Assembly: GCA_038888155.1 (NCBI GenBank)
Contig: JAWAJB010000021.1
Span: 1-15,276, forward strand
Length of the DNA stretch: 15,276 nt
Origin: Desulfurococcaceae archaeon
Lineage (GTDB): Archaea; Thermoproteota; Thermoprotei_A; Sulfolobales; Desulfurococcaceae
Direction: 5' to 3'
A model generated the notes under the pieces. That model saw only the letters and a program-made list of their open reading frames with translations, did no database searches and was not told where the DNA came from. Below are positions 1-15,174 of this stretch, in pieces (position 1 is the first letter of the stretch; each line of letters begins with the position of its first letter). Made by a program: the position numbers and the translations under genes.

Positions 1-267
1 TATAGGACACCTATACCACAACTATACCAAAAGACTCTTGGAAAGTACCCTTTCAGCAACTTGAAGGTAGTTATGTGGCTCGCAAAAGATATAGACACCC
101 TATTGGCATCCTTGAAGAAACTTATACATTCAGAGACTCTAAAAGGTTTCAAGAGGACGGAGATAGCAGGTGTAGAAGACCGTTTGGAAGAAGTTAAGCG
201 TGCACTATCAGGGGTAGGGTTCAGGCCCGCATGTTATACGACAATCTTGAGCAAGGAGCTGGTCTAA
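1..267 (+). CDS. Partial CDS (C-terminal 88 aa, runs off the left edge); possibly the C-terminus of a GNAT-like acetyltransferase
   Basis: Frame 1 is open from base 1 (YRTPIPQLYQK...) to TAA at 265-267, directly abutting the next start. The C-terminal 'ALSGVGFRPACYTTILSKEL' resembles the GF...beta-strand ending of GNAT folds (weak). Confidence 0.55.
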   Translation, partial: YRTPIPQLYQKTLGKYPFSNLKVVMWLAKDIDTLLASLKKLIHSETLKGFKRTEIAGVEDRLEEVKRALSGVGFRPACYTTILSKELV

Positions 268-1719
268 TTGGGCGATGTTGATGTGCTCTTCCTTCATCCG
301 TCCACGTATGTGTCAACATCTGATGGTGAAGTGGTAAGGTACGTAGCCGTGCCCATGGGAACGTTTGCGTTAGCAGACCTGCTAGAAAGGAATGGTTACT
401 CTACGAGGATAGTTCACGTAGGGCTTAAGCGAATGCTTGATCCAAACTATAAAGTCGAGAATCTTATAAAAGCGCTCGAGCCCACACTAGTTGGGATAGA
501 TCTTCATTGGTACTGCCACTCTTATGATGCAATTAAGCTGGCGGATTGTGTAAAGCGATGTACAAATGCCAAAGTCGTGTTAGGTGGGATGACAGCCTCC
601 TTTTTTGCAGATGAGATACTAAGCTCATTTGATTGTGTAGATTACGTAATAGTCGGTGATGCGGAACTTCCTATGATTGAATTGATAAAGGCGTTAATGA
701 AAAGTACGGAAGTGAGCGATGTGCCGAACTTAGTGTACAGAAAAGGTTCTGCAGTAAAGAGGAGTAGAAGAGCATACTTAGCAAGCAGTGAGGACTTGGA
801 TAAGCTGACATGCTCTGACTTAAAACTTTTGGAAGACTGGGACCTTTATGTCAGGCTTATACACGAGAACGATGTTCTCTCGCCGAAGCTGAAGACCCAA
901 GGCTGGTTGATGATCGGACGCGGTTGCTCCGTAAATTGCTCCTACTGCGGCGGTGCAAACTTAGCTCATAGGAAGATATTCGGAAGACAACAGCCGATTT
1001 TTAGGTCACCAGAGAAAGTTGCCGAGGACCTTAGGGCATTCGAGGAACTTGGCATTTCCTGTGCCTACATGGATTTTGACCCATACACTAATAGAAAGTT
1101 CTACTATAAGCTTTTTGAACTCGTGAGGAAAGAGGGGATAGATATAAGCTCCCAGTTCCTCATATGGTCTCTAACCGATAGGAACTTCGTTCAAGATTTA
1201 AAGAAGACATTTAATCCGCTTTACACGACGCTCACGATTTCACCAGAGACTGGCTCAGACTTTGTTAGGCTTAAGAACAAGGGCTTCTATTATGATAACC
1301 AATCTCTCCTAAGATGGCTCGAGATGCTAGAGGAAGAGATGGTTCCTGCCGAGTTGTACTTCGCATCGGGATTAAGCGGCGAGACTGTTGAGGAGTTTAA
1401 TAAGACTATGAAGCTCGGCGAAAGGATACTCCGAACGTACAATAATGTTGTTGCTATATCATGCAATCCGCTCTTTCTAGAACCATGCTCACCTAGATTC
1501 CTTCTACCGAAGAAGTATGGTATAAGATTGAAGTTCAGAAGCTTTAGCGACTTCTATAAGACGTACAAGTGCCTCGCGGAAGGTACTGTGCCTCCGTCGA
1601 GGTTGGGATACGATACCGAGTACCTAAATGAGTTGCAAATAATAGAGTTGAGCAGTAAATTTAACGAGGTGGTTGGCTCTATACTGGAAGGAGAAAATCT
1701 AACTCAGCATTGTGCTTAA
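268..1719 (+). CDS. Cobalamin (B12)-binding domain radical SAM protein
   Basis: N-terminal B12-binding Rossmann features (PMGTFALA, VGIDLHW, VVLGGMTA, VDYVIVGDAE), the radical SAM motif GRGCSVNCSYC (CxxxCxxC), RSPEKVAED and SPETGS. TTG start abuts the upstream stop. Confidence 0.92.
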   Translation: MGDVDVLFLHPSTYVSTSDGEVVRYVAVPMGTFALADLLERNGYSTRIVHVGLKRMLDPNYKVENLIKALEPTLVGIDLHWYCHSYDAIKLADCVKRCTNAKVVLGGMTASFFADEILSSFDCVDYVIVGDAELPMIELIKALMKSTEVSDVPNLVYRKGSAVKRSRRAYLASSEDLDKLTCSDLKLLEDWDLYVRLIHENDVLSPKLKTQGWLMIGRGCSVNCSYCGGANLAHRKIFGRQQPIFRSPEKVAEDLRAFEELGISCAYMDFDPYTNRKFYYKLFELVRKEGIDISSQFLIWSLTDRNFVQDLKKTFNPLYTTLTISPETGSDFVRLKNKGFYYDNQSLLRWLEMLEEEMVPAELYFASGLSGETVEEFNKTMKLGERILRTYNNVVAISCNPLFLEPCSPRFLLPKKYGIRLKFRSFSDFYKTYKCLAEGTVPPSRLGYDTEYLNELQIIELSSKFNEVVGSILEGENLTQHCA

Positions 1720-1728
1720 ACGCCAGCA

Positions 1729-1737
1729 CAAAAAAAT
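1729..1737 (-). terminator. Oligo-T terminator candidate between convergent genes
   Basis: A7 run on the + strand (T7 on the - strand) about 10 nt past the stop of the 1747-3264 gene. Confidence 0.45.
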
Positions 1738-1746
1738 TATGGAATT

Positions 1747-3264
1747 TTAGCCTTTGACAATGGAAGCAGCATGCTCTCCGGCTATCTTCCCGAAAACGGC
1801 ACATCTAGCTAAGCTTCCACCACCAGGATAGTTTTCGAAGAAGAACCCTCCAGTCAACTCACCAATCGCGTAAAGCCTCGGTATGGGCGTGCCCTCTAGG
1901 TCCAGAACACGAGCGTATTTATCCGTTAACGGCCCTCCAAACGTTAACGTTATTCCGCAGACATAATTTATGCCATAGAATGGTGGAGTCTCTATTCTGT
2001 ACGCGTTCTTACTCTTCGGAGGTGTTATGCCCTCTGTGTATCCATCCCTGACGGCATTATTGAAATCCTCGATGGTCTTTTTGAGACCTTCGACATTTAT
2101 ACCAAATATATTCGCCAACTCTTCTATGCTGTTTGCCTCCGTTAGCTTCCCTTTGTACTGCACCAAGAAGTAGTCTCTCCACCATGGGCTAACTCTCTTG
2201 AACCCCTCGGCGTCTAGTATTATGTAAGCCAGCCCATCGGGCTGATCGAGGGCTGCTTTTCCAGCCTCGACATACGTTGCGACACCCTCATCGATAAACC
2301 TTTTACCGTGCTTGTTTACGATTATGCCTTGCGGGAAGAAACCTCCTGGGTTGGCGTATGTCTCCGGTTGAACTGTCGCCCCGTGGTATTGGTCCATGAA
2401 TATCTGTTTCGCCCTAACCTCAGAAACCATTCTATGCCCATCGCCCGTGTTGTTTGGAAGACCTCTGAGAATTGAGTTGTAAGCAACTTTAGGCGATATA
2501 TAGTTCACGACCATCTCTTGGTTTGCTTGGAACCCTCCGCATGCAAGTATCGTCGCCTTCGCCTTAAAGTCTTTGTAACCATCTTTGGTAAGAGCCCTTA
2601 CGCCTAGAACTTCTCCCTTGATGCTGACAAGTAGTGACACGGCTTTGGTTTCTAATATTATCGGAATATTTCTAGCCTTTACTGCGTTGACCATGTATTC
2701 CATCAACTTGGGCCCGCCTCCTTCTACACCTGGAGCGTTCGGTGCCAACCACTTCTCTTTTGGAAGGAATTTTACGCCGGCTACCTTAGGTAACCACTCT
2801 AAGACAGTCTCGTAAGATTTTTCGGCGAGAACCTCTATTAATTCCGGAAATGCTTTATTGTATGTGATTCTCATAACGGCCTTAACGTACTCTGATGGTG
2901 GGAATTCTGGTGTAGAGATGTAGAATGCACCTCCGCTGACGGAGCTGTTACAACTATAAACACTCGGGCCTTTTTCCAATACAACTACATCTTTGACACC
3001 AGCCTCGTAAGCGGCTATAGCCGCGGTAAGACCAGCCATCCCAGCGCCGACGATGACTATCTCATGCTCCTCGAACGGAGGCTCTGGAGGTTTAACGATA
3101 GTAGTCTGCGTAGTCGTCGTAGTTGTTGTAACCGTCTCTGTTACCTTCTCCGCCTTCGGAAAAGCCTGACTTCCTACGATGCCTCCGACCACTAGTCCAG
3201 CTATGCCGGAAGATATTGCTGCTAGTACTTGTCTTCTAGTAACCTTTTTCTCGGAATTTGACAT
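1747..3264 (-). CDS. Tat-signal FAD-dependent oxidoreductase, succinate dehydrogenase/fumarate reductase flavoprotein superfamily, TcuA/CobZ (tricarballylate dehydrogenase)-like subfamily
   Basis: Tat motif VTRRQVL plus hydrophobic helix; Thr-rich linker; IVIVGAGMAG FAD motif; LACGGF, NTGDG, GKRFIDE. ITLTFGG and NYPGGGSL replace the HHTMGG and HGxNRLG motifs of fumarate reductases, as in TcuA/CobZ-like proteins. Confidence 0.85.
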   Translation of the reverse strand: MSNSEKKVTRRQVLAAISSGIAGLVVGGIVGSQAFPKAEKVTETVTTTTTTTQTTIVKPPEPPFEEHEIVIVGAGMAGLTAAIAAYEAGVKDVVVLEKGPSVYSCNSSVSGGAFYISTPEFPPSEYVKAVMRITYNKAFPELIEVLAEKSYETVLEWLPKVAGVKFLPKEKWLAPNAPGVEGGGPKLMEYMVNAVKARNIPIILETKAVSLLVSIKGEVLGVRALTKDGYKDFKAKATILACGGFQANQEMVVNYISPKVAYNSILRGLPNNTGDGHRMVSEVRAKQIFMDQYHGATVQPETYANPGGFFPQGIIVNKHGKRFIDEGVATYVEAGKAALDQPDGLAYIILDAEGFKRVSPWWRDYFLVQYKGKLTEANSIEELANIFGINVEGLKKTIEDFNNAVRDGYTEGITPPKSKNAYRIETPPFYGINYVCGITLTFGGPLTDKYARVLDLEGTPIPRLYAIGELTGGFFFENYPGGGSLARCAVFGKIAGEHAASIVKG

Positions 3265-3285
3265 GCTTATACTTTAGCGTTAAAA

Positions 3286-3300
3286 TATAAAAAGCTTTTG
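3286..3300 (-). promoter_or_regulatory. Archaeal BRE-TATA promoter (probable leaderless transcript) of the TcuA-like gene
   Basis: Minus strand reads CAAAAGCTTTTTATA, with TTTATA 22-27 nt upstream of the ATG at 3264. No Shine-Dalgarno sequence. Confidence 0.6.
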
Positions 3301-3307
3301 GAATGTT

Positions 3308-5113
3308 TTAAAAGTCCATTGCGTTGTATATCTCCGGTGGAAGGTCCGGACAGTCCTTATCAAGATAATGTTTGCTTAGCTTCACTTGAACTTCTAGCAA
3401 TCTCTTGAACTCACTCAGAGAGAGATATGTTGTTGGTTGAAGCTCCTTAAGCCTCTTCTCGGATAGCCCCTCGACCTCTACTGGTATTAGAACTTTCTCA
3501 CCCCAAACTGGGTGGGGCTCGTACTCGACAGCGCCGCGGGATGCTTGGAGTATGAAGAGCTCTGTCTCTTCTATCGTCGGGGATGTCCCACCAACAGGTT
3601 TCATCGTGCCATCTGGAGCTAACTTGAATACTGGCTGAGGTACTTCAAGCTCCTCATCGCCAAGCTTGATCCTTGTCCACTGATACTTTGCGATTATCCT
3701 GCCTGTAGTATTGAACTGATAAACTTCTACCGGGTCTCCTCGCTCCATTCTCTTCTTTAGCATCTCGTAAAACCTAACTACGTGGTTTGTGGATGGAACC
3801 CCCATTGTGAATGGTTTGCAGTACCTCGTAGAGAAGATTACTCCATAGGCATCCCTTGATTGGGCTGGATGTCCTATGGTTCTTCCATCAGCTAGGACTT
3901 TTGCAGCGAAAGCCGGATCTGTGATTTTAACCCATGCGTAGTCAGTGAAGTATCCAGGGGAAATGAAGATTGCTGTGTTCATCGGCCCACTTGACTCAAC
4001 ATCGCCCCTAAAGTAACCAGTATCCTCAAGGAAGAAGACGGATCTAGCATTTTTATTGAACATACCATAATATTGGTAAAGCTCCCCACTAAGCGATGGA
4101 TTACCATTCTCGTCGAATTCTGTGTTCTCATGAAGCGCTCTGGGCGACACAGCAGCTCTCCAGATCGCCACCTGCCTTGGATCAACATCCTCGGTCTTCG
4201 TCCACGATCCCCGCTCTGATCCGATTACTCGATCCTCAAAGATAGCTATTATGTCGTCGTTCTTAATTTCCTGATCCTTAACATAGTCGAGCGGATTTAT
4301 CCCGAACTTTTCAATGTATGTATTGATGTTTGACTTATCCCAGACGTAGAATCCGTGGGTCGATTTTCCCGAGCCTGTGAGCCCCCAGATGCATAAGATT
4401 ATCCTTTTTTCGTTACCATCCTTTCTTTTCACCGTGAACTCCCTGAAAGCTGCATGTTCTCCTGTCCCGCCTTTTTTATAGACATGAATTATCCAGTGGC
4501 TTAGAAACCCTTTTTTTACCTCGCCCTGATAGGATGAGCAGGTAACTATCGTGAAGTCATGATTCGGGAATCTAAGAACCATGAGCATTCGCCCAGTCTC
4601 TGGATTCACCGGGTTTCCAAGATAATGGGGTATGTTTATCAGTTCAACATCCGGGTCCTTTGTCGGATCTCCTGGAAACGCAAGTTGGCTCCACCTGTAT
4701 GCTATGTCCGGAAACTGTGGATCGCAATAAAGCCTACATCTCATCTCAACCCTGCTACCAGGCTTTCCTAGAATTCCGTCCACTTTGATCAGGGGTCCCT
4801 GGGCGAGAATATGTTCGAGAACCCTTCGCATAAGTAACTTATGCTCTCCTCTAAGATCATCGTCTTTCATGATAACGGCTGAGCCAGCCTCGGATCTATG
4901 CCAAATATTTGAGGCCCAACCGAGGGATCCATTCCTGTATTTTGTCGCATAGAGCTTGGCGCGCTCTAGTAGATCTGGCGGATTATCGAGTACTGGCTCT
5001 ATCCCACATCTCCGCTTAAGCTCTAAGATCTTCCTAAATGACTCCTTAAAGCCCCCTATCGTCATCTCCTCAATGCTCGGGATTAATGTAGAAGCCTTTG
5101 CTTCCAGCCGCAT
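3308..5113 (-). CDS. pckA: Phosphoenolpyruvate carboxykinase, ATP-type-like (divergent archaeal form)
   Basis: PEPCK motifs in the expected order: YQGEVKKG (cf. YAGEMKKG), GEHA (metal His), WGLTGSGKST P-loop, KNDD (cf. IGDD), ERGSWTK (cf. EGGCYAK), ENT, KNAR (cf. TENTR), FNTTG. Confidence 0.78.
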   Translation of the reverse strand: MRLEAKASTLIPSIEEMTIGGFKESFRKILELKRRCGIEPVLDNPPDLLERAKLYATKYRNGSLGWASNIWHRSEAGSAVIMKDDDLRGEHKLLMRRVLEHILAQGPLIKVDGILGKPGSRVEMRCRLYCDPQFPDIAYRWSQLAFPGDPTKDPDVELINIPHYLGNPVNPETGRMLMVLRFPNHDFTIVTCSSYQGEVKKGFLSHWIIHVYKKGGTGEHAAFREFTVKRKDGNEKRIILCIWGLTGSGKSTHGFYVWDKSNINTYIEKFGINPLDYVKDQEIKNDDIIAIFEDRVIGSERGSWTKTEDVDPRQVAIWRAAVSPRALHENTEFDENGNPSLSGELYQYYGMFNKNARSVFFLEDTGYFRGDVESSGPMNTAIFISPGYFTDYAWVKITDPAFAAKVLADGRTIGHPAQSRDAYGVIFSTRYCKPFTMGVPSTNHVVRFYEMLKKRMERGDPVEVYQFNTTGRIIAKYQWTRIKLGDEELEVPQPVFKLAPDGTMKPVGGTSPTIEETELFILQASRGAVEYEPHPVWGEKVLIPVEVEGLSEKRLKELQPTTYLSLSEFKRLLEVQVKLSKHYLDKDCPDLPPEIYNAMDF

Positions 5114-5214
5114 ATTACTTTACGGGTTCAGAAAAAGGCACAAATATATAAACATGAATTCTAGTAAACCTCGTTATTTCGATGAACGTAGAAGGGCATC
5201 TTTACGTTTTCTTG

Positions 5215-6153
5215 TTATAACGTCCTGTTGAGCTCATAAGCCGCAAACTTGCTCGTCCTCAAAATCTTACTGTCTGCCAGAATGAGCATAGCCTCTGTAT
5301 TGTCTAACTTTTCCACGAGACCGATGGCTTGTTTTGGGTCCATAAGGCACAGGCTGGTTGCAAGAGCATCAGCAACGAGTGCCCTCTCGCATATTACAGT
5401 AGAGCTGATGACTTGCTCGGATGTTAGTAGCCTCTTTGGGTTGATGATATGACTTAAAATTCCTTGTGCTATCCTGCGTTCATAGCTCCCGCTGGTCGCA
5501 ACAGCACCGTCGTAAAGCTTTATGATCGTTATATTCTGTTCTTTATGAAACGGATCCCTTATTCCAATTCTCCAAGGTTCTTTGTCTATCTTCCCACCAA
5601 CAGCCCTGATATCTCCACCTATATTGATCAGCGCGTTCTTAATTCCGTACTTTTTTAAAGTCTCTGCCGCCAAATCCGCCGCATAACCTTTAGCTATAGC
5701 GTTTAGAACGACCTTCATGCCTTTTTTCAAGAACCTTATACATCTCCCTTCTACCTTTACAGACGAATAATCAACGAGCTCAAATATGCTTCTTAGCCCC
5801 TCTTCAAATGACGTCCGATCTTTTAAAAAATTCTTATCAATATATTCTATTAAGGGAGCCACCGTTATATCGAAGACACCATCCGTTAACATGCTTATCT
5901 TCTCTGCTTCTTTGATGATATATATCAGTTCCTCGGAAGCATTCTCTAAATAGCCTTGTCTGTTAAGTCTGCTAACCTCACTCTCTTCGTTAAATACGCT
6001 CATTATACCCTCAACTCTCTTGATTTCGTTGAATACGTTATCAATTACTCCCTCAGAATGCTCTACGTTTTTAGAAACGATCATAATCGTAACGGAGGTT
6101 CCCATTAAAATTTTTGACTTTTTTACAAGAAGGTATTTTTCTTCTGGTGTCAT
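5215..6153 (-). CDS. apbE: FAD:protein FMN transferase (flavin transferase) with no signal peptide
   Basis: ApbE motifs MGT, SEVSRLN, GVFDITVAPL, NAIAKGYAAD, INIGGD, WRIGIRDP, AVATSGSYER, HIINPK, ADALAT. Confidence 0.95.
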   Translation of the reverse strand: MTPEEKYLLVKKSKILMGTSVTIMIVSKNVEHSEGVIDNVFNEIKRVEGIMSVFNEESEVSRLNRQGYLENASEELIYIIKEAEKISMLTDGVFDITVAPLIEYIDKNFLKDRTSFEEGLRSIFELVDYSSVKVEGRCIRFLKKGMKVVLNAIAKGYAADLAAETLKKYGIKNALINIGGDIRAVGGKIDKEPWRIGIRDPFHKEQNITIIKLYDGAVATSGSYERRIAQGILSHIINPKRLLTSEQVISSTVICERALVADALATSLCLMDPKQAIGLVEKLDNTEAMLILADSKILRTSKFAAYELNRTL

Positions 6154-6177
6154 TTAAAAAATAATAAAGGGTTTTCT

Positions 6178-7782
6178 TCACATAGAGACTTCGCGGGCGG
6201 CATTCCTACCGGCTATCCTTCCGAAAGCTATTATGTCGAGTAAGGCGTTTCCGCCGATCCTATTCGTTCCGTGGATGCCGCCAGTAATTTCTCCGGCCGC
6301 ATAAAGACCAGGTATAACCTTGCCTTCTACGTCCAAAACTTGTGCTTTAGTGTTTATATGAAGGCCACCCATCGTGTGGTGGAGCGAAGGTCTTCCCTTT
6401 ATGGCATAGAATGGTGGTGTGTCTATCTTCAGCATTGGGTCGCCTTTCTTCATAGGCAAGTCTCTTCTCTTGAACTCTGGATCATACCCTTCATCAACGT
6501 ACCTGTTCCAATTGTTCACGGTTTCGACCAAGTTATCCGGATTTATTCCCGCTAATGCCGCAAGCTCTTCTATAGTATCGGCCTTAAAGGCTACGCCTCT
6601 CTTTATCTGGTCGGCGATTATAGTCTCAGGATCTCCAAATGCTTTTATGGTCTTTAATTGTTTATCATCTACTATTGCGAAGGCAAAACCTCCAGGTTGT
6701 GCTAAGACAGCATCTCTCCTAACGTCCCTCCTCTCCAGCTCCTCAACGAATCTTTTTCCATTAGTGTTTACCATGATCCCAATGCCAGTTTCTGTTCCGG
6801 CTGCTATCGTAACCAGGCTGCCCGTTTCATAATCACACATGGGCCACAACTGCACATAATCCATGCCCCTTACAGCAGCGCCTACATCCATTGCCGCTAT
6901 CAATACTTCACCGGTAGTTGTTCCCGGAACGTTTGTAGAGGGGAAGCCAGCGAACCTCGGAGCATGTCTCCTTACTAGTAAATCACTTCGACAGAATCCG
7001 CCGGCAGTCAGCACTACTGCTTTCTTAGCTTTGATGTACTTAGCCTTCCCGTCAGCAGTCTCAACTTTTACACCAAGAATCCTGCCACCATTAGCCTCCT
7101 CTCTAATTATGTTAGTAACTTTGTGTTCTAAGAGTACCTGAATACCTCTCTTCTCAACTTCTTTCTTCAGCGCATTATGTAATGCCGCCCCTCCGCCTAT
7201 TACAGAATGCGTTCTCGGGACACTCTGTCCACCAGACATCGTTAGCGTGTCAGCAAAGGGCACACCAATGTCAACTAAGAAATCAATAACCGAGGGTGCA
7301 TTTTCGACTAGAGTCCTTATGAGCTCTGGGTCCCCCATGTAATCTCCGGATTTAAGTAAATCGTTATACTGCAACTCAAGTGAATCTTTTATTCCTTGCT
7401 TTTCTTGTAATTTAAGTTTCGAAGACCATGCATTTATAATCCCGCCAGAAACAGCAGTGTTACAAAGTCCAAGTTGTGGCATCTTTTCAATTATCAGTAC
7501 TTTTGCACCTTCGTCATGGGCCGTTATCGCAGCAGCGAGGCCCGCACCGCCACCACCTACTATTATAACGTCAGCTTCCATGTCCCACTTCGCAGGCAAC
7601 CATGGTTTTACCTCCTCTACCTTCGTCTCAGTCCTAGTGGTAGTTACTGTTCTCTCTACTTCTTTTGTTACCTCCCTCGGAAATGCCTGACTTCCAGCGA
7701 CACCTCCTACGATTAAGCCGATAATGCCAGCAGCAATCGTTCCTACAACAGTTCTTCTAGATACTTTCTTTTCTGCACTCAC
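6178..7782 (-). CDS. Tat-signal flavocytochrome c flavin-subunit-like reductase (Fcc3/UrdA family), no heme domain
   Basis: VSRRTVV Tat motif, DVIIVGGGGAG, GGQSVPRTH, LTAGGF, GKRFVEELERRD (catalytic Arg), HHTMGG, HGTNRIGGNAL. QLWP stands where fumarate reductases have QxHP. No CxxCH. GTG start. Confidence 0.9.
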   Translation of the reverse strand: MSAEKKVSRRTVVGTIAAGIIGLIVGGVAGSQAFPREVTKEVERTVTTTRTETKVEEVKPWLPAKWDMEADVIIVGGGGAGLAAAITAHDEGAKVLIIEKMPQLGLCNTAVSGGIINAWSSKLKLQEKQGIKDSLELQYNDLLKSGDYMGDPELIRTLVENAPSVIDFLVDIGVPFADTLTMSGGQSVPRTHSVIGGGAALHNALKKEVEKRGIQVLLEHKVTNIIREEANGGRILGVKVETADGKAKYIKAKKAVVLTAGGFCRSDLLVRRHAPRFAGFPSTNVPGTTTGEVLIAAMDVGAAVRGMDYVQLWPMCDYETGSLVTIAAGTETGIGIMVNTNGKRFVEELERRDVRRDAVLAQPGGFAFAIVDDKQLKTIKAFGDPETIIADQIKRGVAFKADTIEELAALAGINPDNLVETVNNWNRYVDEGYDPEFKRRDLPMKKGDPMLKIDTPPFYAIKGRPSLHHTMGGLHINTKAQVLDVEGKVIPGLYAAGEITGGIHGTNRIGGNALLDIIAFGRIAGRNAAREVSM

Positions 7783-7908
7783 GAAATTATGTAGTTTGTA
7801 ACAATTATTTATGTATTTCGAAATTTCGTGTTCTCTTCATATTTATGTAACGTTATGCAAACATATATAAAAAAACTAATATAACAAAGTTGTCGGTTTA
7901 CATTTAAA
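7783..7908. promoter_or_regulatory. AT-rich divergent promoter region between the reductase/apbE genes and the cytochrome b-FMN gene
   Basis: 126-bp AT-rich spacer with TATA-like elements about 25-30 nt upstream of both starts. Contains palindromes ATTTCGAAAT and TAACGTTA and repeated TTATG(T/C)A. Confidence 0.6.
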
Positions 7909-9357
7909 ATGAAAGAGGCAGAATATGTGGAAAGATGGTCACCTCTTGATAGGCTTACGCATTTGCTAATATTGCTCGGTGTCGTAATTGGAGTGGTGTC
8001 CGGTATTCCGCAACTCCAACTCGAAATTCTTGGATATAACCTTGGAGATAGCTTCCGTTGGATTACTGATGTGATAGGCGGAGAGGTTATCCGTCGTTTA
8101 CTCCATAGATATGTTGTAACTGTACTAATTGGGGTTGCAATAGTTGTACATACGCTGAGCTTCGGTCTCAGAAGCAAGAAGAGCAATATACTGTTTACTT
8201 ATAAGGACCTAAAGGACCTTGTCTCATACTACAAGTTTAGGTTCCTAAAGGCTCCTGAACCTGAGCTTGGGTTCCACATGCCTGGTGAAAAGCTACTCTA
8301 TTGGATCGCCGCTATATCATTACCTATCCTAGGATTAACTGGTATTATGATGTGGACGAACTACTTACCCATTGAATATGAGGTCTTAAGACTTCTACAT
8401 AGAGCGTTCTTCATCTTGCTTACAGTTTTTGTAGTAATTCATTTCATACTGAACTTAGTCCTGCGCGACCAGTGGCCTGCATTAAAGTCCATGTTCCTGA
8501 CGGGCAAAGTGCTAAGCGAATGGTTGAGAAAACATCATCCAAAAACGTTCGAAGAAGAAAAGGTTGTTTGGATCGGAAGACGAAGAGCAATAAAAACGCT
8601 TCTTACAGTAATTCCGGCCGTAGCTCTAGGTTACGTATTAAACGAATTGTTGAAACCACCGATGTATATAATTAGAAATATTTACGTTGAACCTTCAAAG
8701 GTTAAGTCAGGCGATCCGTTTACAGTATACGCCGAGATAGCAAACATAGGTTACAGGGAAGGAACATTTAACGTCCAACTCTTCATCGACGGTAGCTTAG
8801 TAGACGAAAAGAGCATTGCATTATTAGATGGTGAGACCAAATTACTATCGTTCCAAGCAAAATTAAAGGAGATCGGCACGCATGTCATAACTGTAGATGG
8901 TGTCTCAACCTCAGTCGAGGTAACGGAGGCACCCCCACCCATTGCGCCTGAACTCGCGGAAAGATTCAAGAAGTTGCTACCCGAAGCGTATGACTTTGTA
9001 CCAATTATAAAAGAAGGAAAGATCGCTTACTATGAAATATACAATGCGATGGGGAACCTAATAGCCTACGGATTTTACACCAGAGCTTATGCTCCCACGG
9101 ATAGACTTCAGATAATTGGAATAGTCGGCCTAGATTACAAGATAAAGTCTATAGACATAGATAGGATAGAGCCGGGAACTAAGTTGCATAATGAGATGAT
9201 AATCGAACCTAAATTTGAGGAAAGATTCATAGGACTAACCGTGGATGAGGTTGGTTTGTCTCCTGAAGGAAAAGTGGATGCTATCAGCGGTGCAACGATC
9301 TCGTCAACTGCAGTAGTTGATGCCATTAAGAATGCGCTAAGTAGCATGCTTCGATAA
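7909..9357 (+). CDS. Fusion protein: FdnI-like di-heme cytochrome b, internal RR transmembrane helix, CARDB/Ig-like domain, FMN-binding (flavinylation) domain
   Basis: Four TM helices with H18, H66, H81, H164, H178; FdnI-like GEKLLYW and TGKVLSEWLRKHHP; GRRRAIKTLL plus a hydrophobic helix; beta-rich VKSGDPFTVYAEIANIG...GTHVITV; C-terminal VDAISGATISS (predicted FMN-Thr463). Confidence 0.88.
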   Translation: MKEAEYVERWSPLDRLTHLLILLGVVIGVVSGIPQLQLEILGYNLGDSFRWITDVIGGEVIRRLLHRYVVTVLIGVAIVVHTLSFGLRSKKSNILFTYKDLKDLVSYYKFRFLKAPEPELGFHMPGEKLLYWIAAISLPILGLTGIMMWTNYLPIEYEVLRLLHRAFFILLTVFVVIHFILNLVLRDQWPALKSMFLTGKVLSEWLRKHHPKTFEEEKVVWIGRRRAIKTLLTVIPAVALGYVLNELLKPPMYIIRNIYVEPSKVKSGDPFTVYAEIANIGYREGTFNVQLFIDGSLVDEKSIALLDGETKLLSFQAKLKEIGTHVITVDGVSTSVEVTEAPPPIAPELAERFKKLLPEAYDFVPIIKEGKIAYYEIYNAMGNLIAYGFYTRAYAPTDRLQIIGIVGLDYKIKSIDIDRIEPGTKLHNEMIIEPKFEERFIGLTVDEVGLSPEGKVDAISGATISSTAVVDAIKNALSSMLR

Positions 9358-9406
9358 CGAAAAATCCAACATAACTACATACAAAACAACTTTAAAAATT
9401 AGTCAA

Positions 9407-9413
9407 TTTTTTT
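9407..9413 (+). terminator. Oligo-T terminator candidate for the cytochrome b-FMN gene
   Basis: T7 run about 50 nt after the stop at 9357. Confidence 0.4.
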
Positions 9414-9425
9414 GCGGATTTGAAA

Positions 9426-9449
9426 CTTTTAATTCTTTCTTTGAGATTC
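9426..9449 (-). repeat. Solitary degenerate CRISPR repeat
   Basis: CTTTTAATTCTTTCTTTGAGATTC matches the array repeat CTTTCAATTCTCTTTTTGAGATTC at 21/24 positions, in the same orientation, about 4.1 kb from the array. Confidence 0.8.
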
Positions 9450-9607
9450 AGCTTTGGAATACTACACGGGCGGGTTCTACATGAATCATGAGAATCTTGA
9501 AGAACAACTTAATCTATCTATCGGGAGATTTAAATGCGAACTTCGGAAGGCAGCATAATGGTAAAGAATTTTAAACGTTAAATGCAACACCGACTCATCT
9601 ATCTAGT

Positions 9608-10720
9608 TTACGATTCTTCAATTATCCCTTTGACGAGATATAGGTAAAGTAATGCTATGAAGATCGCTGTAAAAAATATTATAACTAATAATCCTGATAG
9701 TATTAAGGCCGGTTCTATGAGCATCAATCTATTGATGAAAGTTTCCACCGGTATTCCTGTGTCGCCTACTATAACCATATAAGGTAACCTACCGATGTCG
9801 TGAGCCATCTCTCCGAGTATCAAAGCAGCTATCGATAGGGGCGCCAACATATACGCAATCCACGTCCTAGATGGTTTATGGTAGTGAACTATTCCAAACG
9901 TCAGGATTACTATTGATATTAAAACCATTCCCAGGAAAAGGTATGAAACATTTGTTGACGAATATTGAAGAGGTAGAAATGACCTGTTTAAGCTAGCGAA
10001 TAAGTACGGTGAATGAAAGCTCAACGTACTCCAGAACCAGAATCCCGTTAAACCTTGAGGAATTATCATTAAACCTCCGAGAAGGCTGGCGTACCCGCTC
10101 CATCTCTCAACAGTCTTATCCGCTTTTGATGAACATGCTAGACCAGCCGAAGCAGCTAGAAATCCGATAGATAGCGCTCCAAAGAATGTATGAATTAGAA
10201 GCGGAGGATAGACTGGGTTCGTTAAGGCTTCTATAACGTTTCCAGAGATTGGGTTTAAACTTGTTAAGCCGACTGGGTTGTTTATGAAGGCAAATATGTA
10301 TCTAAAACCTGCTGGGATCGTTAATCCTGATAATGCCATGGTCAGTCCTATCGCGAGATGCGTTCTCGGCCTAACCTTATCCCAAGTATACCAATAGGCA
10401 GCTATAGATGTTAATCTAATAATTATTCCTATAATGCTTACTATTAGGGGGATGAATAAGATTATAGTGACTATGTTTACTAGCGTGGGCCAGATTCCTG
10501 CCAGAATGACAGTTATCATCGTTCCATAAACACCCGAAACGACCTCGGTGGCAACGAGAAACTTGAAGACTTTTCTCGCAGGTTTAGTTACCTCAGGATT
10601 CGACAATGACTTCCATTTAAGAATTACGCTATAGAATCCTAGACCTATGTTTACATTCACAAACGTTAAATGAATCAACAAGATTATTCCTAAAACAATC
10701 AAAGGTAAAGTCACATCCAT
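9608..10720 (-). CDS. cydA': CydA' (CydA-homologous second subunit of an archaeal cytochrome bd-type quinol oxidase)
   Basis: Polytopic and CydA-like rather than CydB-like: LIHLTFVNVNIG, VVSGVYGT, YWYTWDK, FINNPVG, LIHTFFG, GEMAHDIGRLPY. TAATG overlap with cydA and a GGTGA RBS. Confidence 0.82.
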   Translation of the reverse strand: MDVTLPLIVLGIILLIHLTFVNVNIGLGFYSVILKWKSLSNPEVTKPARKVFKFLVATEVVSGVYGTMITVILAGIWPTLVNIVTIILFIPLIVSIIGIIIRLTSIAAYWYTWDKVRPRTHLAIGLTMALSGLTIPAGFRYIFAFINNPVGLTSLNPISGNVIEALTNPVYPPLLIHTFFGALSIGFLAASAGLACSSKADKTVERWSGYASLLGGLMIIPQGLTGFWFWSTLSFHSPYLFASLNRSFLPLQYSSTNVSYLFLGMVLISIVILTFGIVHYHKPSRTWIAYMLAPLSIAALILGEMAHDIGRLPYMVIVGDTGIPVETFINRLMLIEPALILSGLLVIIFFTAIFIALLYLYLVKGIIEES

Positions 10721-12210
10721 TATTCATCACCTATTTTTAAGAATCTCGGAGGCTTCTTCAGAACCAAATATATTGTTGTGAAGGTTATGAGGAGCCCTAA
10801 TATTAACCCGCCAATTATGGTTAATGTAACTTCCGGTCCTATAGGATTCGGTGTAACGAGCTCTTCTGGATACAATAAGCCGTATACTGTCCATGGTTTT
10901 CTACCAATCTCTCTTACCGCCCATCCAAGACCTGCTATAGCAGGAGCAACAAAGAACATGATGAGTCCGCCGTAAAGTAGTATTCTTTCTTTCCCACGCC
11001 AGAACTTCTTGAAAGTAAACGAGCTTATGATGATTAACGAGATCAAGAGAGATAGTGCCGCTAGACCAATCTTAACCTCGTAGAGAGTTTTTACTAATGG
11101 GAGTTTCTCGAGAGCCTTTAACGTATCTGCTAGAGCTATTTCCTTAACCGATACACCTCCTATTTTAAGGCTCGGGTTTGGATGATTCTCAGACATTTGG
11201 AGTAGGTAATCGAAGCCTTTGAATACGTAATTTGGATCCCCAAAGATCGTTAATCCCGCTGGCACATATGGTCCAGATTTCTCTAAACCGGATATCATAG
11301 CGAACTTAGTTGGTTGATAGATGTATATCATTAGACCTTGTTCATGACCTTCTATTCCTTGAATAATTAATAATATCGAACCTATCAACGCAACCGTTTT
11401 GAATAGCCTTAGATAGTAATCTCTTTTCTCTTTCTTTCTCAGTCCCTTGTATGCAAGCGCTCCCGCTATCCAGAAAACTCCCACGACTGTCGTGGCGAGA
11501 AGTTGATGTACTATGCTCGTTAAAGCATATGGGCTTGTTAAAGATACCCACGGATCTTTCAGCAACTCACCATAAGAACTAAATAACGTATTTAGTATGG
11601 TTGGGTTAATTATAGATGCTCCAGACGCTGCGAAGTTTACTCTCGTGCTCACCAATACTTCTTTAACGGTTATCAGGAAGTTGATGTTTATTGCTGTTGG
11701 ACCGTATACAGGAGCCCATGGATAAATTATCTTAACTATTTCTCCTGTTCCCCATGGTGCCTGCATCCAAGAATTTACAGAAGTTATCAGCAACCCCGAG
11801 AACAACGCGCCCGCCGTGTAGGTGACCGTTATCATCCAATGGGTCCAAGGATTCTTGAATTTATCCCAGGTGTACAGTAATGCAACCAGCAATGTTGCTT
11901 CGATTGTAAAAGCTACCAACTCTAAAAATAGTGGAGTGAAAAAGAACGATCCGATGGCCAGGATTACACCATTCCATACTTGCACGAGTCCAAATTCTAC
12001 TAGCGTCCCAGTCGCTGCTCCAAATACAAACGCGATTGCTATTACTAGGGATAACTGCTTGGCGAGTCTTATATAGCTAGCATCCTTCTTCCTAATGCCT
12101 AAAAACTCTATTATAGTTAGTGTAATTGAGAATCCTATAACTATGGCGACGGTTATCGAATGGATGTATATTCCTAATGCTGATAAATCGAGTGTCCCTC
12201 GTAAGTTCAT
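10720..12210 (-). CDS. cydA: Cytochrome bd-type quinol oxidase subunit I
   Basis: YIHSITV (H19 equivalent), FGAATGTLVEFG, LELVAFTIEA, VNSWMQAP, VHQLLA (H186 equivalent), GHEQG, QPTKFA, GWAVREIGRKPW. Confidence 0.93.
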   Translation of the reverse strand: MNLRGTLDLSALGIYIHSITVAIVIGFSITLTIIEFLGIRKKDASYIRLAKQLSLVIAIAFVFGAATGTLVEFGLVQVWNGVILAIGSFFFTPLFLELVAFTIEATLLVALLYTWDKFKNPWTHWMITVTYTAGALFSGLLITSVNSWMQAPWGTGEIVKIIYPWAPVYGPTAININFLITVKEVLVSTRVNFAASGASIINPTILNTLFSSYGELLKDPWVSLTSPYALTSIVHQLLATTVVGVFWIAGALAYKGLRKKEKRDYYLRLFKTVALIGSILLIIQGIEGHEQGLMIYIYQPTKFAMISGLEKSGPYVPAGLTIFGDPNYVFKGFDYLLQMSENHPNPSLKIGGVSVKEIALADTLKALEKLPLVKTLYEVKIGLAALSLLISLIIISSFTFKKFWRGKERILLYGGLIMFFVAPAIAGLGWAVREIGRKPWTVYGLLYPEELVTPNPIGPEVTLTIIGGLILGLLITFTTIYLVLKKPPRFLKIGDE

Positions 12211-12270
12211 TTCAAGAACTTTCTAACCTCTTAATCTATAATTAAAGATTTGGTTCATATTTCGAACATT

Positions 12271-12284
12271 AAAAACAAAAAAAA
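12271..12284 (-). terminator. Oligo-T terminator candidate for the peroxiredoxin gene
   Basis: AAAAACAAAAAAAA on the + strand (T-tract on the - strand) about 35 nt past the prx stop. Confidence 0.45.
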
Positions 12285-12319
12285 TAGTTAGAGATTTAAT
12301 TAAGTAGAATTTCGATTTA

Positions 12320-12979
12320 CTATTTCTCGAGTTCTTTGTACACGAACCACCAGGCGTATCCTTTGTACTGCTTCATTCTATCTTCTGCTGTTTTCTCATC
12401 GGTTGCTGGCGGAACTATTACTTTGTCACCGATGAGTTCGTTGTTTGGCCAGTTGGCCGGGATCGCTACTTTAAACTTATCTGCCGTTTGGATACCCTTT
12501 ACGGCTCTCAGTATTTCGTCTATGTTTCTTCCAAGCTCGTGCGGATAGTAGAACATGGCTCTGAGAATTCCTTCAGGGTCAATTATTAAGACCGCCCTAA
12601 CAGTATTCGTCCCCTTATTCGGATGAATCATTCCGAGCATCGCTGAAATATTACCCGTGTCGTCAGCTATAATTGGGAACTCGATGGTCAAATTAAGATT
12701 CTCTTTGATCCATCTGACCCATTCTATGTGACTGAAAACCTGGTCTACGCTGAGGGCGATAAGCTCACAGTTTAATTTTCTGAACTCATCGTATTTTTTC
12801 TGGAATGCATAGAATTCGGTCGTACAGACAGGGGTGAAGTCGGCTGGGTGGGAAAACAGCACAACCCATTTCCCTTTATAATAGTCTGGGAAGTCGATGA
12901 AGCCCTTAGTCGTCATAGCTTTGAAGCTTGGTATCCTATCTCCTATCATAGGGAGTTTTCTTACTCCAACCGCTTCCAT
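12320..12979 (-). CDS. Peroxiredoxin (Prx6/archaeal AhpC-TSA type)
   Basis: [12 protein letters not shown] active-site motif, LSVD...[33 protein letters not shown]. Confidence 0.95.
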
Positions 12980-13036
12980 TTTTATAACCCCCCAGGTTCT
13001 TAATCATTTATTAGGAGGTTCTTTTATTAATATTTT

Positions 13037-13459
13037 ATGGTTCGATTTACGGACTTAGACCTTATAAAGGTTCTAATGAAAGATTCCAGGAAGACTTGCG
13101 TTGAATTAGCGAAGATATTTGGTGTAACAGAAGCGGCTATAAGGAAGAGGATCAGAAAGCTTGAATCTGAAAAGATCATAAAACGATTTACCGTCGAAGT
13201 TGATTTAAAGAAGCTTGGATTCGAAGTCCATGCACTCATCGGTTTGGATGCCTATCCTGAAAAGCTTATCCAGGTACTGGAAAGGTTACAGAGCATGGAA
13301 GAGATCTTAAACCTTTATACTTCATCTGGAGACCACATGATACTTATAGAGTGCTGGTTCAAGAATATGAGTAAGCTTTCAGAATTCGTAAAAAAACTTG
13401 AAAACATAGACGGAATAACTAGGATATGTCCAGCAATTATCTTAGAAAAAATTGAGTGA
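13037..13459 (+). CDS. Lrp/AsnC family transcriptional regulator (LrpA-like)
   Basis: HTH DLDLIKVLMKDSRKTCVELAKIFGVTEAAIRKRIRKLE, plus a RAM domain with SSGDHMIL and GITRICPAIILEKI. Confidence 0.93.
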   Translation: MVRFTDLDLIKVLMKDSRKTCVELAKIFGVTEAAIRKRIRKLESEKIIKRFTVEVDLKKLGFEVHALIGLDAYPEKLIQVLERLQSMEEILNLYTSSGDHMILIECWFKNMSKLSEFVKKLENIDGITRICPAIILEKIE

Positions 13460-13588: not shown

Positions 13589-14442
13589 TGGGGTATTCTC
13601 TTTTTGAGATTCTTTTTCAGGGGTGGCCCGAGCACTCTGGGCCAAAAGGTCTTTCAATTCTCTTTTTGAGATTCCTGGTTTGCAAAAGCCCACACTTGGG
13701 CAGGTGCCCTTGGTCTTTCAATTCTCTTTTTGAGATTCGAGGATAATAGCCGCAGGCAACTCTCCAGAGCACTCGGCAGCTTTCAATTCTCTTTTTGAGA
13801 TTCTTGTTTTGGGACTTTATCGAACATCTTGCGGCGTGCGAACTTTCAATTCTCTTTTTGAGATTCTCAACATCACGCCTTCGACCACGCTTTTCCCAAG
13901 TAACTCCCTTTCAATTCTCTTTTTGAGATTCCACATGAGAATTGGGACAAGCGTGGCTTAGCTTATTTGATGCTTTCAATTCTCTTTTTGAGATTCAAAC
14001 TGATAGAAGTAGCGGTAGGAGTGCCGCAAGATATACTTTCAATTCTCTTTTTGAGATTCGGGCTTATGATACCGGCACGAAAGCCGGGGCCATAATTACT
14101 TTCAATTCTCTTTTTGAGATTCAAAAAACTTTAAATACTACTACTACTAATAGTGCGCTTTCAATTCTCTTTTTGAGATTCGATTGGGATGGAAGAAAAG
14201 ATAAGCATAGAGCTAAAATTAGAGACTTTCAATTCTCTTTTTGAGATTCGCACACCAAAAAGCGAGGGTATTACGCCCTGCCTGACCGCTTCCTTTCAAT
14301 TCTCTTTTTGAGATTCATGATTGTCAACTGACGAAGAACAACTAAACATACGGTCTTTCAATTCTCTTTTTGAGATTCTTCTTTAATTTTTCTGCGAGTG
14401 TATTGCATTACACGCATTCTTTCAATTCTCTTTTTGAGATTC
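13589..14442 (-). CRISPR. CRISPR array: 14 repeats (13 identical plus 1 degenerate trailer) and 13 spacers of 35-44 bp; repeat in predicted transcribed sense GAATCTCAAAAAGAGAATTGAAAG
   Basis: + strand repeat CTTTCAATTCTCTTTTTGAGATTC starts at 13651, 13715, 13780, 13843, 13908, 13973, 14036, 14099, 14158, 14226, 14293, 14355 and 14419. A degenerate copy at 13589-13612 keeps 18 of 24 nt. The degenerate end on the left, the cas genes on the right and the ATTGAAAG handle indicate minus-strand transcription. Confidence 0.98.
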
Positions 14443-14566
14443 CGAGCCTAATTCCCCGGTTTTTCCGGGAATTAGGCCACTTTATTCTCCCAACCTCTCG
14501 CTGGTGCCTCTTTTGCTGGGTACTTTATAAACTCCAGCGAAAGAATATAAGCTTTTCGGTATATAA
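14443..14566 (-). promoter_or_regulatory. CRISPR leader with BRE-TATA-like element, overlapping the 3' end of cas4
   Basis: Minus strand GAAAAGCTTATATT at about 14544-14557, a second TTTATAAA at 14524-14531, and an inverted repeat next to the first repeat. Confidence 0.7.
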
Positions 14567-15174
14567 GGTTGGCACACCTTCCTATAACCGCAGGATGTAC
14601 ACTTAGAAGCCGGCTGTCTGGTCTCCGGAAATACCTCTTCGGCGATAATCCTCTTCACCTCCTCTATCTTCTTCATAGTATACCTTTTCATCTTCTCTGT
14701 TATGCTGAACTCCAACAAATCGTCGGATTTCTCGTAAACTATGTAACCCTTCTTCGAGACCTTCTTCATGCAACTTTCCAAAAGCAACGCGTAGGCTACC
14801 AGCTGGATTAAGTGATTTTCGCTGACCTTCTTAGGTTTTGGAGAGCTCTTGAACTCAACTGGTGAGGCCTCCATACCGCGTACTACTACACAGTCTATTG
14901 TGCCAACCAACCCCAACTTCTCCGAGTAAAGGTTGACATCGAATAGCTTAACATCGACGTTGAGTTTTTTCGCAAGCTTTCTCCTCCTCTCCTCCAATCT
15001 CACGATCCTATCTTCTGATTCAGTACCCTCTTTCATACATTCCGTAATTCTTTCTCTGAACCCTAAGACGTGCATGAAGTATGGTATCTTTGGACAATAG
15101 ACGAACTGCTTCAGATCGCTCACAGAGAGTGGTTCATTTGACAATGACTCGCTCAGTAACACCTTCAAGACCAC
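14482..15174 (-). CDS. cas4: CRISPR-associated exonuclease Cas4 (true start may be TTG at 15144)
   Basis: SVSDLKQFVYCPK, GTIDCV, PVEFKS and QLVAYALLLE RecB-like motifs. C-terminal CTSCGYRKVC completes the four-Cys Fe-S site. Confidence 0.95.
   Translation of the reverse strand: MVLKVLLSESLSNEPLSVSDLKQFVYCPKIPYFMHVLGFRERITECMKEGTESEDRIVRLEERRRKLAKKLNVDVKLFDVNLYSEKLGLVGTIDCVVVRGMEASPVEFKSSPKPKKVSENHLIQLVAYALLLESCMKKVSKKGYIVYEKSDDLLEFSITEKMKRYTMKKIEEVKRIIAEEVFPETRQPASKCTSCGYRKVCQPYIPKSLYSFAGVYKVPSKRGTSERLGE

Follow-up and report, generated by a model that had tools for sequence, protein, structure and literature searches.

In bacteria, an ApbE flavin transferase, a protein binding flavin mononucleotide (FMN) and a dihaem membrane protein are described as jointly feeding electrons to extracytosolic enzymes (PMC8238504; bioRxiv 10.1101/2024.03.13.584918). 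According to the same two sources, the bacterial fumarate-reductase-like enzymes have an FMN_bind domain either in cis or encoded in the same cluster. The genome survey of PMC8238504 counted flavinylation components in only 63 archaeal genomes, and the flavinylation literature cited here contains no characterised archaeal system. A precedent for the architecture described below is given by PMC5449189, which presents Sco3746 as a protein dually targeted by Sec and twin-arginine translocation (Tat), with dihaem helices carrying predicted haem b ligands, an arginine pair (RR) before its fifth transmembrane helix (TMD5) and a C-terminal cofactor domain.

Here we analyse a gene cluster on one entire archaeal contig of 15,276 nucleotides (JAWAJB010000021.1; contig C21 of assembly GCA_038888155.1, here G000), which we call the window. 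A cytochrome b fused to an FMN-binding domain (the fusion) is transcribed divergently from genes for a flavoenzyme of the flavocytochrome c type (Flavo1) and for ApbE, with a second flavoenzyme (Flavo2) on the same strand as the latter pair. Every element named in an initial annotation of this DNA was found in its place and in this orientation. The cluster is a real, conserved system, an archaeal form of bacterial flavinylation-based extracytosolic electron transfer. We read it, with a probability of about 0.6, as a modular electron wire linking the membrane quinone pool with flavoenzymes tethered on the outside. On this reading helices 1-4 of the fusion would be a dihaem cytochrome b of the FdnI type, in electron exchange with quinone and quinol, the neighbouring ApbE would attach FMN to Thr463 of the C-terminal FMN_bind domain, and this domain, on its tether, would relay one or two electrons between the outer haem and the flavin adenine dinucleotide (FAD) of the membrane-anchored FAD_binding_2 enzymes.

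Anatomy and conservation of the cluster

Three Pfam domains are recognized in the fusion, each above its cut-off: Ni_hydr_CYTB (PF01292) at residues 9-196 (57.3 bits against 30.1), CARDB at 255-330 (28.9 against 22.7) and FMN_bind (PF04205) at 406-478 (36.0 against 22). The protein contains a single [ST]GA[ST] motif, the SGAT of residues 460-463, and no cysteine at all. None of D457, A458, G461, A462, T463, S465 and S466 varies among the 17 homologues, nor does the DxxSGAT motif. The proposal that an FdnI-type cytochrome b is joined here to an FMN domain bearing SGAT is thus borne out.

Comparison with the Protein Data Bank using phmmer aligns H66, H164 and H178 of the fusion with His57, His155 and His169 of FdnI (1kqf_C). 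These three histidines are invariant in the 17 homologues, and H18, located in the first transmembrane helix (TM1), is nearly so. All four histidines expected for two haems b (FdnI His18, 57, 155 and 169) have counterparts, and the fusion is predicted to bind both haems. The haem ligands of helix 4 are 14 residues apart in both proteins, and the invariant G126-E127-K128 aligns with the 'GQK' stretch of FdnI, which we take to be part of its quinone site. The NCBIfam model for the formate dehydrogenase gamma subunit (TIGR01583) scores 67.2 bits against a cut-off of 115.85. Judged by sequence, the cytochrome is a member of the FdnI fold family, but it is not an FdnI orthologue. DUF4405 (PF14358) is also under its cut-off (24.5 bits against 26.7), and the model described next has five helices where that family would have six.

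An AlphaFold2 (AF2) model of the fusion built on the 17 homologues has a mean predicted local distance difference test score of 79 and a predicted template modelling score (pTM) of 0.49. It contains helices at residues 12-36, 59-87, 127-150, 157-184 and 226-248, followed by a beta-sandwich (253-339) and an alpha/beta domain (347-481). Foldseek with this model returns E. coli FdnI (1kqf_C, TMt 0.75), the CARDB structure 3idu (0.63) and RnfG (7zc6_G, 0.54). The loops predicted to lie inside contain 8 and 9 lysines plus arginines, against 1 and 0 in those predicted to lie outside. With five helices, this charge pattern places the C-terminal FMN domain outside the cell. In some homologues a threonine-rich linker replaces the CARDB spacer.

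Flavo1 and Flavo2 both match Pfam FAD_binding_2 (273 and 150 bits, respectively). Flavo1 exceeds the cut-off of the NCBIfam flavocytochrome c model TIGR01813 (412 bits against 285), and matches Shewanella Fcc3 (1d4c, E 9e-88) and UrdA (6t85, E 9e-87). Flavo2 scores under the TIGR01813 cut-off (192 bits). Its best NCBIfam family is TcuA (NF006130), at 269.7 bits against a cut-off of 369, so that its description as TcuA-like stands as a best match but not as family membership. Neither flavoprotein contains CxxCH, CxxC or [ST]GA[ST], and Pfam finds no FMN_bind domain in either; as had been proposed, they have no electron-input module of their own. Nor was an iron-sulphur (Fe-S) subunit detected in the window, the Pfam scan of its 11 open reading frames (ORFs) of at least 120 amino acids (aa) giving no Fer4 match, again in keeping with the initial annotation.

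What might these flavoenzymes do? Flavo1 keeps R352, H468 and R508, the equivalents of Fcc3 Arg402, His504 and Arg545. At the position of Fcc3 His365 it has W313, and I326 and G329 stand for Glu378 and Arg381 of the proton path. UrdA is recognized by a Tyr at the His365 position together with FMN_bind in cis, and Flavo1 has Trp there. The residue at this position and the proton path led us to reject Flavo1 as a fumarate reductase or a UrdA. Flavo2 has no equivalents of Arg402, His504 and Arg545. With His365 and the proton path changed in the one enzyme and the triad missing from the other, 'fumarate/urocanate reductase' is a label of fold that says nothing of function. A paralogue of Flavo1 in a related locus (L010) does have Tyr at the His365 position, without the UrdA Asp and without FMN_bind; we assume the functional role of these Tyr and Asp residues in UrdA. 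Among the 17 linked flavoproteins, seven keep the Arg/His/Arg triad; these are the Trp type, the Tyr type and the enzyme of locus L069, described below. At least eight flavoprotein types (at 50% identity or less) are linked to the FMN module. Bacterial homologues of Flavo1 (41-47% identity) often have FMN_bind in cis, and the closest are annotated as respiratory reductases. A complex prediction with Flavo1 58-534 and the FMN domain (340-482), run without controls, scored 0.00 and speaks neither for nor against binding.

How widespread is the fusion? The domain-architecture search that had been recommended found 17 full-length homologues among 5.8 billion clusters (47-99% identity), and those carrying a name come from metagenome-assembled genomes (MAGs) of Aigarchaeota or Nitrososphaerota. 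A profile search of 1.84 billion representatives gave only one full-length fusion cluster among its best 150 matches, a set swamped by multi-CARDB surface proteins, in which a distant fusion below the 150th match (~127 bits) could be hidden. The three-domain architecture is confined to one small archaeal family. Gene neighbourhoods were compared for 16 full-length fusion loci (the window, L010, L011, L042, L043 and L070-L080), several of which are near-duplicates; by identity to the fusion of the window they form five classes, at 99-100, 93, 75, 56-60 and 46-47%. ApbE is adjacent in all 16, and at least one FAD_binding_2 gene, mostly divergent from the fusion, in 15; the contig of the other locus, L079, stops within ApbE. 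Each locus contains between one and three flavoprotein genes. The linkage on which the original proposal depended is thus present, and it exceeds chance.

The flavoprotein genes are also exchanged. By blastn, positions 1-6168 of the window are 99.8% identical to L010, and the segment that follows, up to 7524, has no DNA match there: residues 87-534 of Flavo1 are replaced in L010 by the Tyr-type paralogue behind an unchanged signal-anchor. Loci L072 and L073 differ by a second rearrangement, with paralogues that have a common 5' end, and L011 retains a fragment of the other paralogue. Catalytic parts of the flavoproteins have been swapped between near-identical strains, and the interchangeability of the flavoenzymes, claimed at the outset, is well supported. 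In L073 (6284-7829) the flavoprotein beside the fusion is an ORF of 418 aa from which the signal-anchor is split off onto another piece, perhaps because of a frameshift, pseudogene formation or faulty assembly.

Parts of the fusion are found in other company too. The nearest cytochromes b that stand alone (30-36% identity) are encoded third in operons with molybdopterin and 4Fe-4S proteins, and are classical quinone-reactive anchors. At 6330-10656, locus L069 of a Thaumarchaeota MAG has genes for a 4Fe-4S protein with a Tat signal, an anchor of NrfD/DmsC type, a separate protein with RR, a transmembrane helix, CARDB and FMN_bind, a flavoprotein with a Tat signal (39% identity to Flavo1), and ApbE. 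On the evidence of its genes L069 is an unfused counterpart that contains Fe-S: it shares the FMN module, flavoprotein and ApbE and has a different quinone module, of the NrfC/NrfD type. The idea of a wire free of haem c and Fe-S therefore holds, as regards Fe-S, for the lineage of the window, but not for L069. In a sister genus, the gene string of L044 (contig C13 of G357; 8873-13061) encodes, beside ApbE and a Tat-signal FMN_bind protein (with TGAT), a CCG-domain protein and two Fe-S proteins, one in the membrane and the other a 4Fe-4S protein of the cytoplasm. Transcribed divergently from it are genes for a ferredoxin-like protein and an aldehyde:ferredoxin oxidoreductase. The set of loci fits an FMN domain that would act as an adaptor from a membrane redox module to FAD enzymes.

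ApbE and the route out of the cell

ApbE matches Pfam PF02424 over its whole length (profile positions 1-266 of 266; 245 bits). The protein has no hydrophobic segment and no signal peptide or lipoprotein anchor; the domain begins at residue 17, and the ORF cannot be extended upstream. All five ApbE orthologues that adjoin the fusion or its split form are likewise leaderless. In our list of homologues the MGT motif starts within 20 residues of the N-terminus in 13 of the 14 ApbEs of this archaeal clade that have it, compared with a start no earlier than residue 28, after signal or lipobox sequences, in 54 of 63 other relatives with the motif. The starts of some distant homologues (P0316, P0341, P0345, P0330 and P0342) are twin-arginine-like, and in some organisms ApbE may itself be exported by Tat.

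Since the ApbE of the window has no signal peptide, simple flavinylation outside the cell fails as an explanation. R224 and R225 are invariant in the fusion homologues, within the motif GRRRAIK in the window. This is also the profile position at which homologues of the outer module that stand alone have their starts, with canonical Tat signals of the SRRxFLK type; split forms with SRRxFL-type signals are P0018, P0019, P0032, P0086, P0081, P0098 and P0129. The leaderless ApbE, the invariant RR before helix 5 and these Tat-signal modules together suggest cytoplasmic flavinylation followed by Tat export, which is the simplest reading. ApbE would be cytoplasmic, and the CARDB-FMN module would be both flavinylated and folded in the cytoplasm. 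Tat would export it by means of the twin-arginine motif before helix 5, making the fusion a dual Sec/Tat-targeted protein, and both FAD enzymes would likewise leave folded via Tat.

Flavo1 and Flavo2 have S/T-R-R motifs (SRRTVVG and TRRQVLA, respectively), followed by a hydrophobic stretch and a Thr-rich linker, and Thr-rich linkers are typical of archaeal surface proteins. Every linked flavoprotein whose start was read has an SRR motif, with a hydrophobic stretch, GSQAFP and a Thr-rich linker after it; in L073 the motif is on the separate gene piece. Pfam TAT_signal matches neither Flavo1 nor Flavo2 at E <= 0.01. For this reason the description of the two as Tat-signal flavoproteins rests on the motif, which is present, but is not seconded by the Pfam family. 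The partner protein in L069 gives a TAT_signal match of E 1.5e-4 (22.0 bits, slightly below the 22.7 cut-off). Low hydrophobicity of the fifth transmembrane helix (TM5) was considered as a signal for release from Sec; crude Kyte-Doolittle means fail to single the helix out (1.53 for TM5, against 1.42 for TM1 and 1.55 for TM2). Residues 249-270 following TM5 contain four Lys or Arg.

Tat export of a flavinylated domain appears in no title or abstract found by our literature searches, and the words 'Tat' and 'twin-arginine' are absent from the main text of PMC8238504. If covalent flavinylation does precede Tat export, the place of flavin supply changes, and so does the set of proteins counted in genome surveys, since a survey that accepts ApbE only with a signal peptide would overlook systems of this kind.

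Host, expression and neighbouring genes

The proteins of the contig are ~99% identical to those of a contig of Ca. Terraquivivens tengchongensis, and the fusion is 93% identical to that of a Ca. Geocrenenecus dongiae contig. Both genera are placed by PMC9246946 in the Wolframiiraptoraceae of the Caldarchaeales. G000 is filed in another family; it measures 2.42 Mb with 6.4% contamination, and its genus-mates there measure 1.3-1.5 Mb and lack the fusion. It is probably a mixed bin, and the counts were therefore redone on the clean relatives G034, G082, G166, G255 and G357. In each of these, FMN_bind, ApbE and TatC occur exactly once. Across 401 sampled Thermoproteota genomes, FMN_bind occurs in six, all of them Wolframiiraptoraceae or G000. 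With a single FMN_bind and a single ApbE per genome, ApbE has one visible target, encoded next door.

In one metatranscriptome run 61% of the sampled words of the region are present. Metatranscriptome contigs of at least 99% identity, from one study, cover Flavo2 at a depth of 24-30, Flavo1 at 29-58 and the fusion at ~11, with little or no coverage of ApbE, the bd oxidase genes and the radical SAM gene. This coverage is only consistent with transcription, given that the contigs show neither strand nor level and come without a DNA control. About 3% of each of two raw-read hot-spring metatranscriptomes (X3 and X4) was sampled, too little for a test, and gave no matching read.

The minus-strand gene string consists of Flavo1, ApbE, a PEPCK_ATP-like gene and Flavo2 (from the ORF listing and Pfam), with gaps of 24, 101 and 43 bases. 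Coordinates are collected in Table 1. Whether the PEPCK_ATP-like gene belongs to the system is uncertain. A role for it in a route forming fumarate was rejected, as the gene is absent or fragmented in most related loci. In the Geocrenenecus-like loci L011, L071 and L077 only fragments of this divergent gene match (residues 11-37, 33-105 and 249-302), as if it had decayed.

Directly downstream of the fusion gene and convergent with it are two adjacent CydA-type genes (9608-12210), one of 496 aa and a divergent one of 370 aa. As a bd-type quinol oxidase pair they lack a classical CydB, and they are linked to the fusion in Terraquivivens-like loci only. Pfam also identifies a peroxiredoxin gene near the cluster and finds no iron-transport gene in the window. 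On the other flank (region 1-1719) is a B12-binding radical SAM gene (268-1719). Towards the far end of the window lie a CRISPR (clustered regularly interspaced short palindromic repeat) array and a Cas4 gene (13595-14450 and 14482-15174), the array with 14 copies of the 24-nt repeat CTTTCAATTCTCTTTTTGAGATTC at a spacing of ~64 nt. This region has the deepest metatranscriptome contig coverage in the window, with many alternative spacer joints.

Table 1. Features of the cluster, with positions in the window
Feature	Position	Strand	Basis
Fusion protein, 482 aa: FdnI-type cytochrome b, TM5, CARDB, FMN_bind	7909-9357	+	Pfam, AF2, Foldseek
Cytochrome b domain, aa 9-196, four transmembrane helices; His18, His66, His164, His178 proposed ligands of two haems b	7933-8496	+	phmmer, alignment
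Invariant R224-R225 in [GST]RR[RK]x[IL]K, then TM5 (aa 226-248); proposed internal Tat signal-anchor	8578-8652	+	alignment
CARDB beta-sandwich spacer, aa 253-339	8665-8925	+	Pfam, DSSP, Foldseek 3idu
RnfG/NqrC-like FMN_bind domain, aa 347-481	8947-9351	+	Pfam, NCBIfam, Foldseek 7zc6_G
SGAT 460-463 in D457-A-I-S-G-A-T463-I-S-S; T463 predicted FMN attachment site	9286-9297	+	motif
AT-rich divergent spacer, 126 bases, between Flavo1 and fusion; presumed promoters	7783-7908	.	sequence alone
Flavo1: flavocytochrome-c-type FAD enzyme, 534 aa, without haem or FMN domain	6178-7782	-	Pfam, NCBIfam
Flavo1 signal-anchor	7678-7782	-	
Flavo1 segment exchanged among strains (aa 87-534; 48%-identical paralogue in L010)	6169-7524	.	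blastn, tblastn
ApbE FAD:protein FMN transferase, 312 aa, leaderless	5215-6153	-	Pfam; no hydrophobic segment
PEPCK_ATP-like gene, 601 aa, within the gene string	3308-5113	-	Pfam 46 bits; NCBIfam 124.5 bits, under cut-off 369
Flavo2: second FAD_binding_2 enzyme, 505 aa, TcuA-like but under cut-off	1747-3264	-	Pfam, NCBIfam
Flavo2 signal-anchor	3157-3264	-	

Direction of flow, alternatives and known systems

In which direction would electrons pass? We favour, somewhat over the reverse, a flow from quinol via the haems, FMN and FAD to an organic acceptor; the catalytic Arg of the Flavo1-type enzymes, their bacterial relatives and the NrfCD-type variant all argue for it. A number of points weigh against the wire as we have drawn it. 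FdnI has its quinone site on the cytoplasmic side, so that outward flow from quinol would oppose the membrane potential, and the FdnI architecture is classically used for donor oxidation. Flavo1 has Trp for His365, and ten of the 17 linked flavoproteins have none of the three Fcc3 catalytic residues, including Flavo2 and both enzymes of each of L042 and L043 (the loci of G166 and G255). Genome G357, which is 88% complete, has the FMN module and ApbE and no full FAD_binding_2 gene at E <= 1e-20, a warning that the adaptor can serve other ends. At a pTM of 0.49 the AF2 model leaves the placement of the FMN domain relative to the outer haem unfixed, and the CARDB spacer could keep that domain off the membrane. 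As regards export, the positive-inside rule also yields an Arg pair before a helix, TM5 is not clearly less hydrophobic than the other helices considered, and the flavoenzymes have no Pfam Tat match. The domain anatomy, the conserved ligands and motif, the topology signals, the linkage of the genes and the exchange of cassettes are observed; we infer the occupancy of the fusion by haem and FMN, the dependence on Tat, the contact among the parts, the direction of flow and the substrates.

If the same wire ran in reverse, tethered dehydrogenases would oxidize extracellular organic compounds and reduce quinone by way of FMN and the haems, in the manner in which formate dehydrogenase-N uses FdnI, and quinol would go to the neighbouring bd-type oxidase. 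FdnI-type anchors classically reduce quinone at the cytoplasmic face, giving a proton-motive redox loop, and the fusion has such an anchor, complete with aligned haem ligands and 'GQK'-like stretch. CydA and CydA'-like genes do lie directly downstream, but in L042, L043, L072-L076 and L078 the bd genes are unlinked to the fusion. In the same way Flavo2 has a dehydrogenase, TcuA, as its best family, but scores under its cut-off, and the reductase Arg/His/Arg lacking in ten linked flavoproteins is retained by Flavo1, its Tyr-type paralogue and the L069 enzyme. Moreover, the L069 variant carries an NrfCD/DmsBC-type module, which usually oxidizes quinol for a terminal reductase, and among bacteria the nearest homologues bear FMN in cis and are annotated as respiratory reductases. 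On balance we think the reversed wire unlikely. A more general role is improbable, in which the fusion would be an electron outlet to ferric iron, soluble flavins, oxygen or peroxide, in the manner of the bacterial MsrQ-, PepSY- and DUF4405-type cytochromes, and the flavoproteins would have another partner or none. PMC8238504 often ties bacterial flavinylation-associated cytochromes to iron reduction, but the window contains no iron-transport gene. The weak DUF4405 match, the nearby peroxiredoxin gene and the FMN module of G357, without a full FAD_binding_2 gene, would suit such an outlet; yet a flavoprotein is adjacent in 15 of the 16 fusion loci and usually divergent, these flavoproteins have no electron-input domain of their own, and their bacterial homologues have the same FMN_bind domain in cis.

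It is very improbable that every part is cytoplasmic or sits on the inner membrane face, with RR as topological charges and with a cytoplasmic ApbE target as in the cytoplasmic fumarate reductase of Klebsiella. The leaderless ApbE is what this would predict, and PMC12052999 describes cytosolic ApbEs with cytosolic targets. The five helices and the charge distribution, on the other hand, put the C-terminal domain outside, both flavoproteins have the N-terminal RR motif, hydrophobic anchor and Thr-rich linker, split homologues carry canonical Tat signals, and the L069 partner has its Pfam TAT_signal match.

The reading we prefer therefore remains the wire from quinone pool to tethered flavoenzymes. 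We tentatively extend it, at somewhat less than even odds, to a Tat-threaded module that would be a universal socket, wiring the quinone pool to shuffled Tat-exported flavoenzymes without haem c or Fe-S; Thr463 would be flavinylated in the cytoplasm by the leaderless ApbE, and the genes would probably have been acquired from bacteria by a hot-spring archaeal family and rebuilt. That catalytic cassettes are swapped while the signal-anchor stays constant points to respiratory or oxidative versatility of a plug-in kind in this uncultivated family of tungsten-dependent thermophiles. The cluster provides a compact and testable archaeal case, with a membrane module that neither the main text of PMC8238504 nor bioRxiv 10.1101/2024.03.13.584918 names.

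How does the cluster compare with the systems it most resembles? In E. coli FdnI (1kqf chain C) we find the same fold (TMt 0.75), three aligned haem ligands, the 14-residue spacing in helix 4 and the GQK-like stretch. Unlike FdnI, the cytochrome has no FdnG or FdnH partner in its cluster, carries an extra fifth helix and an outer FMN module, and scores 67 against 116 with the NCBIfam FdnI models. RnfG and NqrC share the FMN_bind fold (Foldseek 7zc6_G), the phosphoester linkage of FMN to the Thr of SGAT, here predicted, and a one-helix anchor on the outer face. The cluster differs in having no other Rnf or Nqr subunits, and NCBIfam RnfG gives the fusion 71 bits against a cut-off of 230.

Listeria FrdA and Shewanella UrdA, as presented in PMC8238504, also have an Fcc3-type FAD_binding_2 domain outside the cell, fed via covalent FMN on [S/T]GA[S/T], which is predicted here. 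In those proteins FMN_bind is in cis on the reductase, whereas here it is in trans on the cytochrome; at the substrate-side position Flavo1 has Trp where Fcc3 has His and UrdA Tyr, and Flavo2 is without the catalytic triad. The actinobacterial Rieske protein Sco2149 and the dihaem-molybdenum cofactor protein Sco3746 (PMC5449189) likewise combine Sec-type helices, RR directly before the last helix and an outer C-terminal cofactor domain. In contrast to these, the cofactor here would be covalently attached FMN and the dependence on Tat is a prediction; 'FMN' does not occur in the main text of PMC5449189.

The closest parallel in function is with the bacterial transmembrane cytochromes of the MsrQ-like (PF01794), PepSY-like and DUF4405 types, in which a dihaem b protein is thought to feed an extracytosolic FMN domain flavinylated by ApbE, whose gene is part of the cluster (PMC8238504; bioRxiv 10.1101/2024.03.13.584918). 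'PF01292' and 'cytochrome b' are absent from the main text of the former, and 'cytochrome b' from the latter; the supplements of both may list such clusters. Unlike those bacterial cytochromes, that of the window is of the four-helix FdnI type (PF01292) and is covalently fused to its FMN domain, with helix 5 and the CARDB spacer in between. The system also differs from its bacterial counterparts in its Thermoproteota host, in a leaderless ApbE combined with Tat motifs on all the exported parts, and in the exchange of its catalytic cassettes.

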